From IMG/VR virus record IMGVR_UViG_3300033074_000010, positions 1-41,294 of that record: a DNA stretch of 41,294 bases. One strand, 5' to 3'. How positions within the stretch are numbered: position 1 is the first letter of the stretch; every line of letters begins with the position of its first letter. Below the pieces are notes generated by a model. It ran no database searches and was not told where the DNA came from. It worked only from the letters and a program-made list of their open reading frames with translations. Below, piece after piece: positions 13,469 through 15,074 of the stretch. Both the position numbers and the translations under genes were made by a program. This stretch comes from a virus (taxonomy: Duplodnaviria > Heunggongvirae > Uroviricota > Caudoviricetes).

Positions 13469-13938
13469 TTTCCGTGCCTCTCAGTAAAGTCTTTCTTTTC
13501 TTTGTAAAAACATTCGGCATATCTTACGGCGTCTTCTTTGTGGCCAAAACGCTTGGCTATTCTATTTCCGTTATATTGAATTTGAACGACCCATTTACCG
13601 TTATATGTTTTACTAACCCCGGTAACACCAGACGAGTTATCCCTGCGCTTTGCTGCATTTTTGCAGTTTATGCGCCGGTCGCACAGTCGCAGATTCTCTA
13701 TACGGTTATCGCTTTTCACACCGTTTATGTGGTCAATCTCCTTGCCTTCTGGTATAGCTCCGTTAAACATTTCCCATATAATTCTGTGGGCGAATGTCAT
13801 TTTTGACCCTAGTTTAGTTCTTACATATCCGCGTTGGTCAACGTACCCTACTTTACGCCCTTTCGGGTACTTAGGGTTTACGCTGTCCTTAGCGTAAAGA
13901 CTACCGTTTTCGTATTCGTAAACGTCATTCCATGTCAA
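13465..13938 (-). CDS. HNH homing endonuclease with AP2-like DNA-binding domain
   Basis: HNH motif EIDHINGVKSDNRIENLRL...RRINCKN; AP2-like GVTGVSKTYNGKWVVQIQYNGNRIAKRFGHKEDAVRYAE; TTG start after AGGAGG; AT-rich. Confidence 0.8.
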   Translation of the reverse strand: MTWNDVYEYENGSLYAKDSVNPKYPKGRKVGYVDQRGYVRTKLGSKMTFAHRIIWEMFNGAIPEGKEIDHINGVKSDNRIENLRLCDRRINCKNAAKRRDNSSGVTGVSKTYNGKWVVQIQYNGNRIAKRFGHKEDAVRYAECFYKEKKDFTERHGK

Positions 13939-15074
13939 TTTATACCTCCTATCATTTCTGGTGATATTGTGAGGCGTGCCACCTCCCCATATTCTGCACT
14001 ATAAGTTATCACGTTAGCACTACGACCGGACATCCAGCCCCCTCGCGATGCGTAAGCATCTTTCGCAGCCAGGGTTCGGTGTTGTTCGACTACCATATTG
14101 CGGCTTTCTACTAATTTCTGATGATGTAGATGCCCTACATGAGCGTAGCTGTATGTGCTTTCTCCGAAAGCCTTACGGAATTTAGAAATCATTACCGACT
14201 CTATGGCGTCAAATCTCGCACGGTGTCCGTGATGCATGAATAGCGTAGTTTTCCCGTGCTGAACCATCTTGTATACGTCGGGGGAGGTGTCCACAAATAC
14301 GCGAGGTTCGTTGTCGTACAATGTACAGAACATTTCGGCAAGCCATACAGAGCCTACAGGGTCATGGTTACCTTGAACGATTAAAAGTTTGACTGTGTGA
14401 TGTTTAACAAGCGCCATATCTACCACACGGCGTACCATGCGAATCATGTAGCGCACAAGTTTCTGATAACGCGTATCCGCGTCCAACACATTGCGGGACT
14501 CAGGGGTAACGGCATCCAGACTATCGAAGTGCGCAAAGTCACCAAGCAGGTTAATGACTCCTGTTCCTGCATCCGGTGCTTTCTGAAACGCAGCATCAAA
14601 CCATCGAGAGAACAGGTCTTCTGCAATCTTCATGTCCCAGTCGTCGCCGCTCTCGTCAGCCCATGCCAGCATACCGAGATGAAAATCAGATACAGTGTAA
14701 AGATTAAGTAGTTTATCGTCTCGTTTGGCTCGTGCTGCTTTAACAGGGGCGACTGGCGTAATCTCTGATTTCATTCCTTCGATTACGGCTTTCATCAACT
14801 CGACCTGACGTTCTGCGTCTGTGTCGGTCTTAACCCATTGCAGTTTAGTGTTGCCGAACTCGTCCACCAGTGACGAGGTCCCTTTAATTTTGTAGCCTTC
14901 CGGTACGAGGTGGCTAACGTCGCGCCCGTGGCCTACGCCTTTCTTAGCCAGCTTCGCTTTACGGATACGAATAACGCGGTCTGAGATGCCGTATTTACGG
15001 GCGATGTCTACATTCTTCAACCCGGCGTTCAATTCTTCCTGTAACTGTTCGTCGGTTATTTTCTTATGGGCCAT
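13935..15074 (-). CDS. calcineurin-like metallophosphoesterase with N-terminal HTH region
   Basis: Motifs DxH (SDFHLG), GDxxD (GDFAHFD), GNHD (QGNHDP), GHxH (VGHLHH); N-terminal HTH-like segment; RBS GAGGAAG. Confidence 0.7.
   Translation of the reverse strand: MAHKKITDEQLQEELNAGLKNVDIARKYGISDRVIRIRKAKLAKKGVGHGRDVSHLVPEGYKIKGTSSLVDEFGNTKLQWVKTDTDAERQVELMKAVIEGMKSEITPVAPVKAARAKRDDKLLNLYTVSDFHLGMLAWADESGDDWDMKIAEDLFSRWFDAAFQKAPDAGTGVINLLGDFAHFDSLDAVTPESRNVLDADTRYQKLVRYMIRMVRRVVDMALVKHHTVKLLIVQGNHDPVGSVWLAEMFCTLYDNEPRVFVDTSPDVYKMVQHGKTTLFMHHGHRARFDAIESVMISKFRKAFGESTYSYAHVGHLHHQKLVESRNMVVEQHRTLAAKDAYASRGGWMSGRSANVITYSAEYGEVARLTISPEMIGGIN

Follow-up and report, generated by a model that had tools for sequence, protein, structure and literature searches.

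The window analysed here, a 41,294-nucleotide stretch of DNA of a virus of the Caudoviricetes (IMG/VR record IMGVR_UViG_3300033074_000010, positions 1 to 41,294), is that of a Kagunavirus-like siphovirus. Inside its rightward tail module, with the tail tube gene (12037-13209) on one side and the tail assembly chaperone genes (15587-16003 and 16012-16365) on the other, lies a leftward operon. In order, the operon contains a small membrane protein gene, the gene of a metallophosphoesterase (MPE) fused to a helix-turn-helix (HTH), an HNH endonuclease gene, a gene for a 76 amino acid (aa) protein and a terminator. The MPE gene is the subject of this analysis. It is a minus-strand open reading frame (ORF) that begins with ATG and encodes 379 aa, as the original prediction had placed it at 13935-15074, and an AGGAAG ribosome-binding site is found 5′ of it. 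The description of its product as an HTH-fused calcineurin-like phosphoesterase is supported by the catalytic motifs and by the HTH helices in the structural model. It is somewhat likely that the protein is a DNA phosphodiesterase or nuclease from the Mre11/SbcD/DP1 branch, one that stands alone and is tethered by its HTH.

The gene is a member of a known, catalogued family, and the copy in the window is nearly identical to deposited ones. Residues 4-375 of the protein matched positions 2-389 of the 390 in the hidden Markov model of phrog_704 ("DNA repair exonuclease") with E=1.9e-161. Kagunavirus proteins, deposited or assembled, are 92-96% identical to it, and Kagunavirus coliphages (e.g. 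Bas70-76) show about 86% DNA identity to the MPE region. Homologs were found by tblastn in 2,017 phage records, which include Kagunavirus, Jerseyvirus, Dhillonvirus, Drexlerviridae (T1 among them), Webervirus, Vibrio phages and Campylobacter Fletchervirus. An exhaustive search over representatives clustered at 50% identity gave 4,531 homolog clusters at E<=1e-3, of which 1,137 also passed E<=1e-30; nearly all have lengths of 370-420 aa. In the Drexlerviridae pangenome the gene is "persistent", being present in 508 of 522 genomes (PMC13164509). The gene is apparently near-universal in Guernseyvirinae as well, because at >=60% identity the 459 MPE records are of the same order as the 495 records of the neighbouring tail tube gene, a rough comparison of counts and not a census. 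Public product names of the family conflict with one another and include DNA repair exonuclease, phosphatase, metallophosphoesterase, DNA polymerase II small subunit, HTH-type regulator/nuclease SbcD and oxidoreductase. Neither the NCBIfam nor the Pfam search of the protein returned a phosphatase-family match, and nothing useful came from NCBIfam; the PADLOC defence-system models gave no match at E<=1. PHROGs 20703 and 20762 each cover a portion of the protein, its N-terminal half (aa 1-193) and its C-terminal part (aa 260-374), and BFVD contains fragment-sized relatives, among them ones of Roseobacter phage RDJL Phi 1, Salmonella phage 36 and Jk06. The gene therefore appears to be split or interrupted in some phages, possibly by mobile elements.

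All five ordered motifs of the calcineurin-like superfamily, DxH, GDxx(D/H), GNH(D/E), H and GHxH, are present in the protein, and the model has the β-sandwich fold of these phosphoesterases. Of the motif set read originally, DxH, GNHD and GHxH stood, while the GDxxD form of motif II had to be corrected to GDxxH. Conservation was determined in an alignment of 134 representatives that are 31-49% identical to the query. In this alignment D130, H132, G178, D179, N236, H237, H282, G314 and H317 are invariant, and W80, E141, H182, D184, T190, D198, R202, R258, G235, D238, H315 and D339 are among the residues conserved in at least 90% of the sequences. Because the catalytic residues are invariant across the 134 representatives, the protein is predicted from its sequence to be an active enzyme under strong purifying selection. 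In motif II, GDFAH with its H182 aligned with GDLLH of T. maritima Mre11/SbcD. A histidine at this place in motif II is typical of Mre11 and not of PPP phosphatases or CpdA-type enzymes. The search with the Pfam Metallophos models that had been proposed as a check was carried out; both models matched the protein, neither above its gathering threshold (22.5 against 27 bits and 18.4 against 21.5 bits). Some homologs do pass, such as P0248 with 25.1 against 21.5. The family is too divergent for these models.

The N-terminal region preceding the catalytic domain is composed of two parts. The HTH spans only about aa 5-45, and not the roughly 100 aa first described as HTH-like. In the AlphaFold2 model a disordered stretch separates its helices from a β-hairpin (61-85), which together with the following helix forms a conserved linker. 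HTH profiles matched weakly (GerE/LuxR, E=0.03; FixJ, E=0.0035; LrpA, E=0.0096). Across the family the N-termini matched a variety of Pfam domains, HTH_1, HTH_8, HTH_23, HTH_30, HTH_11, HTH_24 and Sigma70_r4, some of them above threshold, in a survey that included ten members whose N-termini are extended; at least one member carries two HTH modules. The homolog of Campylobacter phage CP30A is devoid of the HTH and keeps the hairpin and helix linker. Differing HTH modules thus replace each other in front of a constant catalytic domain, and this swap of DNA-binding modules argues for an enzyme that would be targeted to DNA.

Structure prediction, also proposed as a check, gave a model nearest to PolD DP1, SbcD and Mre11. 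The AlphaFold2 model was built from a 91-sequence alignment (pLDDT 84.3, pTM 0.75) and scored against known folds. The highest score was obtained with the 3′-5′ proofreading exonuclease PolD DP1 (16.1), followed by S. aureus SbcD (15.0) and T. maritima Mre11 (14.9); further Mre11/SbcD entries gave 12.7-13.3. Among other proteins of the fold, the small generic MPE MJ0936 scored 13.8, LpxH 13.7, the Pol delta B subunit 13.5 and Rv0805, a class III cyclic nucleoside monophosphate phosphodiesterase, 12.0. A lambda-phosphatase-like enzyme (9.5) and PP5 (9.0) had the lowest scores. With Foldseek, DP1 and the Mre11-DNA complex ranked first and Rv0805 came close behind (E=1.3e-7 against 2.6e-8). In HHpred records left by depositors, the T1 homolog matched SbcD 4LTY at 99%, and the fTaEco03 Kagunavirus protein, which is 93% identical to that of the window, matched PolD DP1 at 99.59%. 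A PDB sequence search with the single protein returned nothing but a marginal match to the HTH of FixJ. The model comparisons thus modestly, if consistently, favour the nuclease branch.

Homologs of the protein in T1 and Bas01 are 45% and 43% identical to it, and for the latter there is genetic evidence. Bas01_0050 (Bas01, MZ501051) is a full-length homolog (E=4e-108) that belongs to phrog_704. Bas1 escapes the defence system DRT7 by frameshift or missense mutations in Bas01_0050; the gene is toxic in E. coli K-12 and so could not be co-expressed with DRT7; and DRT7, also called UG10, is a reverse-transcriptase defence that makes poly(dA)/poly(dT) DNA (bioRxiv 10.64898/2026.02.16.706125). The escape mutants and the toxicity indicate, therefore, that the family is not needed for plaques to form, harms the uninfected host and is tied to DRT7.

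The location of the gene differs between lineages. In Drexlerviridae (T1, Bas01, tonnikala, KOX1) it ends an operon of helicase, Holliday-junction resolvase/VRR-NUC and Dam genes and stands before the holin-endolysin lysis cassette, and in Dhillonvirus it has the lysis genes on one side and the terminase genes on the other. A lambdoid-like prophage of Microbulbifer carries the MPE gene after NinG and ahead of its lysis and terminase genes. In marine contigs it closes the early region or has a DNA polymerase gene nearby, and in CP30A the HTH-less form comes directly after a DNA ligase gene. The position within the tail module is peculiar to the lineage of the window. The earlier argument that placement in an accessory operon speaks against a role in DNA metabolism does not generalise, because homologs elsewhere sit in DNA-metabolism contexts, as at the end of the replication operon of Drexlerviridae, where the gene is core, after NinG in the prophage and after the ligase gene of CP30A.

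In two phages the MPE gene is followed by the genes of a HAD PNKP-type phosphatase and a T4-like deoxynucleoside monophosphate (dNMP) kinase, namely Kagunavirus fTaEco03 (3628-4667), where the pair replaces the 76-aa gene, and Webervirus KOX1 (4661-5721). Between the two phages the HAD proteins are 59% and the kinases, dNMP kinases of phrog_139, 49% identical. The MPE of the window is 93% identical to that of fTaEco03 and about 40% identical to that of KOX1. Since the pair is more similar between the phages than the KOX1 MPE is to the MPE of the window, the comparison suggests that the pair may have been transferred horizontally to the same place beside the MPE gene. In Drexlerviridae genomes devoid of the SH3 gene, PNK and dNMP kinase genes most often come immediately after the exonuclease gene (PMC13164509). 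The adjacency suggests that the MPE may be linked with end healing, or else with the breakdown of DNA and the recycling of nucleotides.

Within Guernseyvirinae the MPE gene is the constant member of the island and its neighbours vary. Imm-like genes occur upstream of it, and an HNH gene, the 76-aa gene, an antirepressor gene or the HAD phosphatase and dNMP kinase pair downstream. The features of the island in the window are listed in Table 1. The predicted membrane protein encoded by the first gene shows a weak YebO-like match and no PHROG match; in relatives its slot is occupied by genes resembling the T4 Imm superinfection-immunity gene, and it may act in exclusion or as a moron. The HNH gene is inserted precisely where the MPE stop codon meets the start codon of the 76-aa gene, a junction that is uninterrupted in Bas71. 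It brings an AGGAGG ribosome-binding site of its own and starts with TTG, and its insertion changes the C-terminus of the MPE from PEMLG-stop to PEMIGGIN-stop. HNH genes were also seen at the same or an adjacent site in 590B, templet, T1, Bas01 and Vibrio phages; because they recur there across phages, the 3′ flank of the MPE gene is a homing hot spot. In Bas71 and Shelanagig the 76-aa gene is directly 3′ of the MPE gene. The 76-aa protein has no Pfam match, and it matches only the C-terminal third of PHROGs of about 180-250 aa (phrog_2452, phrog_17613 "ATPase" and others). As a conserved partner of the MPE it was considered and rejected, having no similarity to the DUF3310, dGTP_diPhyd_N and dNMP kinase genes found beside homologs. 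The terminator, AAGGCCCC-GAAA-GGGGCCTT, is perfect and identical in Bas71, and separates the island from the convergent tail tube gene. On the far side of the island, the tail assembly chaperone ORFs (Phage_TAC_4 and Phage_TAC_18; 15587-16365, plus strand) are directly upstream of the tape-measure gene, and a programmed frameshift is annotated there in relatives.

Table 1. Features of the MPE gene and of the leftward operon, in coordinates of the window.
Feature	Coordinates	Strand	Basis or remark
Coding sequence of the 379-aa HTH-MPE, phrog_704 member	13935..15074	-	ORF list; phrog_704 match; Kagunavirus identity
N-terminal helix-turn-helix, aa 5-45	14940..15062	-	AlphaFold2 helices 8-16, 21-28 and 32-44, pLDDT 86-91
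Conserved β-hairpin and helix linker, aa 57-104, with near-invariant W80	14763..14906	-	Model strands 61-70 and 76-85; helix 87-104
Metallophosphoesterase catalytic domain, aa 119-375	13950..14720	-	
Motif I, D130-F-H132	14679..14687	-	Read from sequence; invariant in three alignments
Motif II, G178-D179-F-A-H182 (GDxxH)	14529..14543	-	G178 and D179 invariant; H182 >=90% conserved
Motif III, G235-N236-H237-D238	14361..14372	-	N236 and H237 invariant
Motif IV, H282	14229..14231	-	Invariant
Motif V, G314-H315-L-H317	14124..14135	-	G314 and H317 invariant; H315 >=90% conserved
Candidate sigma-70-like promoter of the leftward operon	15461..15489	-	10/12 consensus; weak, number of sites not above shuffled expectation
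Small membrane protein gene, 97 aa, ATG at 15406, first gene of the operon	15113..15406	-	GAGGAA ribosome-binding site
HNH_3 homing endonuclease gene at the MPE 3′ end	13465..13938	-	Pfam HNH_3, E=5.4e-22; phrog_99
76-aa gene, normally overlapping the MPE stop codon	13238..13468	-	C-terminal part of phrog_2452, E=2.4e-36
Bidirectional intrinsic terminator ending the leftward operon and the tail tube gene	13214..13233	.	8-bp stem, 6 G-C pairs, both strands

Two roles had been suggested for the protein, processing of DNA and degradation of cyclic nucleotides. The former fits the results better because of the nuclease-like fold, the Mre11-type histidine, the HTH modules and the toxic, DRT7-linked homolog; the latter is unsupported. 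For the DNA phosphodiesterase or nuclease, the following sequence of events is proposed. The HTH and the β-hairpin linker would place the enzyme on duplex DNA, where the two-metal centre formed by D130/H132, D179, N236/H237, H282 and H315/H317, together with the Mre11-like H182, would hydrolyse phosphodiester bonds. It would work without a Rad50-type ATPase. By breaking down DNA or processing its ends, the substrates being the host chromosome, DNA ends or replication intermediates, it would feed or assist the DNA metabolism of the phage. Its function would be dispensable in the laboratory and, as a by-product, may be what DRT7 responds to in the related phage. The DNA substrate, the nuclease activity, the binding of DNA by the HTH and the biological role are all what we infer for the protein.

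Several observations weigh against this assignment. The PDB profile matches to T. maritima SbcD/Mre11 are not significant (E=0.39-0.84, hmmsearch). The protein ends right after the catalytic core and has neither the C-terminal capping domain of Mre11/SbcD nor the Rad50-binding helices. No Rad50/SbcC gene flanks the MPE gene, the rest of the window not having been scanned with an SbcC profile, and none is annotated in the complete Bas71 genome or beside the homologs in T1, Bas01, KOX1 and tonnikala. Because the capping and Rad50-binding regions and an SbcC/Rad50-like neighbour are missing, the protein is no Mre11/SbcD orthologue. The place where the HAD/kinase pair stands may be simply a permissive insertion site, as HNH genes land there too. 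The toxicity of Bas01_0050 could be explained equally by an enzyme that hydrolyses some essential cofactor or nucleotide. Its link to DRT7 is genetic only, and DRT7 has unrelated triggers as well, lambda Gam and the HTH_3 protein Bas63_0035 (second preprint).

The gene of Bas63_0035 (425-724) lies close to the DNA ligase gene in a Felixounavirus, and its product is a Cro/C1-type HTH_3 protein of 99 aa. A domain common to Bas01_0050 and Bas63_0035 that DRT7 might sense was considered and rejected, the hhalign probability with the N-terminus of the family being 9.9%. Among the three DRT7 determinants, lambda Gam, Bas01_0050 and Bas63_0035, no shared domain was detectable.

Other activities were weighed against that of a DNA-tethered nuclease. 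An end-healing or nucleotide-salvage phosphoesterase would remove terminal phosphates, 2′,3′-cyclic phosphates or blocked ends, or would process mono- or oligonucleotides, and would share a pathway with the HAD PNKP-type 3′-phosphatase and the dNMP kinase. The metallophosphoesterase domain of bacterial Pnkp provides an analogy. We consider such a role distinctly unlikely, although the MPE, HAD_PNKP and dNMP kinase trio recurs at differing genome positions in fTaEco03 and KOX1 with the HAD and kinase similarities given above. PNK and dNMP kinase are also the commonest successors in the SH3-less Drexlerviridae (PMC13164509), a dATP/dGTP pyrophosphohydrolase-like gene follows the MPE gene in the prophage, and the ligase gene precedes it in CP30A. 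However, the window is devoid of the HAD and kinase genes and has the HNH and 76-aa genes there, and in T1 about 35 kb separate the MPE gene from those of PNK and dNMP kinase. An MPE phosphatase would duplicate the HAD phosphatase next to it, in fold the protein is closer to nucleases than to lambda-phosphatase-like enzymes, and a nuclease more readily accounts for the toxicity that the homolog shows in uninfected cells. The same toxicity, shown by Bas01_0050 in E. coli K-12 without infection, implies a housekeeping target and makes it very improbable that the protein is an anti-defence phosphodiesterase that destroys the cyclic mono-, di- or oligonucleotides which serve CBASS, Pycsar, Thoeris or type III CRISPR as second messengers. 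In the lineage of the window the gene does lie in a variable island with superinfection-immunity-type genes, as would suit such an enzyme. Across lineages and hosts, however, it is a core gene, mostly in DNA-metabolism operons; the HTH found throughout the family has no obvious role in messenger degradation; and loss of the homolog helps the phage against DRT7 instead of harming it. Rv0805 scored slightly below the nucleases in the fold comparison, and none of the established anti-signalling enzymes (Acb1, Apyc1, ring nucleases) is known to have the MPE fold. This was the speculative alternative raised with the original prediction.

Two further possibilities were given still less weight. The protein could be a regulator of transcription or timing, its HTH binding particular promoters of phage or host at the switch from early to late genes and its MPE domain serving as a sensor or an auxiliary activity. 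The position at the early/late or lysis boundary in Drexlerviridae, Dhillonvirus and the prophage would agree with this, as would two kinds of weak match, one to the PHROG of a late transcriptional activator (E=0.0025), the other to HTHs of the LuxR/sigma-70 region 4 type. We nevertheless regard it as highly improbable: Bas1 frameshift mutants are viable, which they would not be if the protein were an essential late activator, in CP30A the homolog keeps the enzyme without the HTH, and the strictest conservation is found in the catalytic centre and not in the HTH. A NinI-type Ser/Thr/Tyr protein phosphatase that reprograms host phosphoproteins is scarcely credible. The protein shares its superfamily with lambda NinI, and in the Microbulbifer prophage the MPE gene stands in the nin-region slot after NinG, the slot in which lambda carries ninI. 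Motif II reads GDFAH, however, and not the GDxVDRG of PPP enzymes, no phosphatase-family match was obtained with Pfam or NCBIfam, and fusion to an HTH is unexpected in a protein phosphatase. The Ser/Thr phosphatase folds also scored far lower, and the NinI-type reading was rejected.

A more specific form of the nuclease assignment can be outlined, which we hold to be possible, though unlikely as a whole. Here phrog_704 would be a Rad50-independent, HTH-guided nuclease of the host chromosome and would be the as yet unassigned host-DNA-degradation function of T1-like phages; its products would feed nucleotide salvage through the HAD 3′-phosphatase and dNMP kinase, and DRT7 would sense its nuclease activity and not the protein as such. 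In classical T1 genetics such a function is "gene 2.5", beside the replication genes, and the connection with it is a lead only. Although the gene in the window is an ordinary copy of a catalogued family, this family is among the most widespread phage enzymes without an assigned biochemical function, and it occurs in groups on which phage therapy and the BASEL model collection draw heavily. If the nuclease assignment is true, it would settle the annotation, explain the handling of host DNA and give a handle on sensing by DRT7.

Comparison with known systems places the protein among enzymes of the calcineurin-like superfamily. Lambda NinI and the PPP phosphatases have the superfamily and the metal ligands in common with it. 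Archaeal PolD DP1, to which the MPE of the window is about 11% identical, is a subunit of a replicative polymerase and has an OB-fold domain; nothing suggests that the MPE is a polymerase subunit, and the DNA polymerase of the window phage is of family A. The Mre11/SbcD nucleases include gp47 of phage T4 and D13 of T5, and the MPE instead has an N-terminal HTH and hairpin.

Two phage proteins are parallels in function. T5 A1, a pre-early protein, is required for host DNA degradation, is described as possessing a DNA-binding domain at its N-terminus and a nuclease domain at its C-terminus, and triggers retron Eco2 (PMC12916289). It is a possible analogue of the MPE of the window, its relatives having N-terminal HTH Pfam matches, and sensing of the nuclease activity of the MPE by DRT7 would parallel the activation of retron Eco2 by the phage nucleases DenB and A1. 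T5 A1 (phrog_1745, 556 aa) is essential, whereas the Bas1 homolog of the window MPE is dispensable. T5 A1 itself has no Pfam domain, and the invariant residues of its family are MPE-like (GDIH, HDVxD, SNHD, H476 and GHTH); judged by these residues, it may be a highly divergent MPE nuclease. As a homolog it was rejected, since BLASTP gave nothing significant, the hmmsearch score of 3.2 bits was within the range of shuffled controls, and hhalign gave a probability of 16.6% over 32 columns that cover motif III only. The MPE of cluster A mycobacteriophages (A10ZJ24 Gp48; Bxb1 gp47) is a phosphodiesterase that is made early, is toxic and disrupts host genomic DNA (PMC12287305). This phenotype parallels the role proposed for the window MPE, but the protein has about 255 aa and no HTH. 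Membership of the same family was rejected for it (phrog_221; hhalign probability 11.4%). T5 A1 and the cluster A MPE are functional parallels of the window MPE and not relatives closer than the superfamily. The MPEs of Metis and PUA-Cal-HAD are host-defence enzymes that degrade NAD+ or dNTPs and are other than the window family. The closest known system is the phrog_704/VOG9929 family itself ("DNA repair exonuclease/putative phosphoesterase"), with the same architecture and length, a full-length match and 40-96% identity. T1 ORF16 (CPTT1_064), Bas01_0050, KOX1 gp35 and Jerseyvirus gp23 are among its members, and in the lineage of the window the gene lies in a leftward island of the tail module, not at the end of a replication operon.

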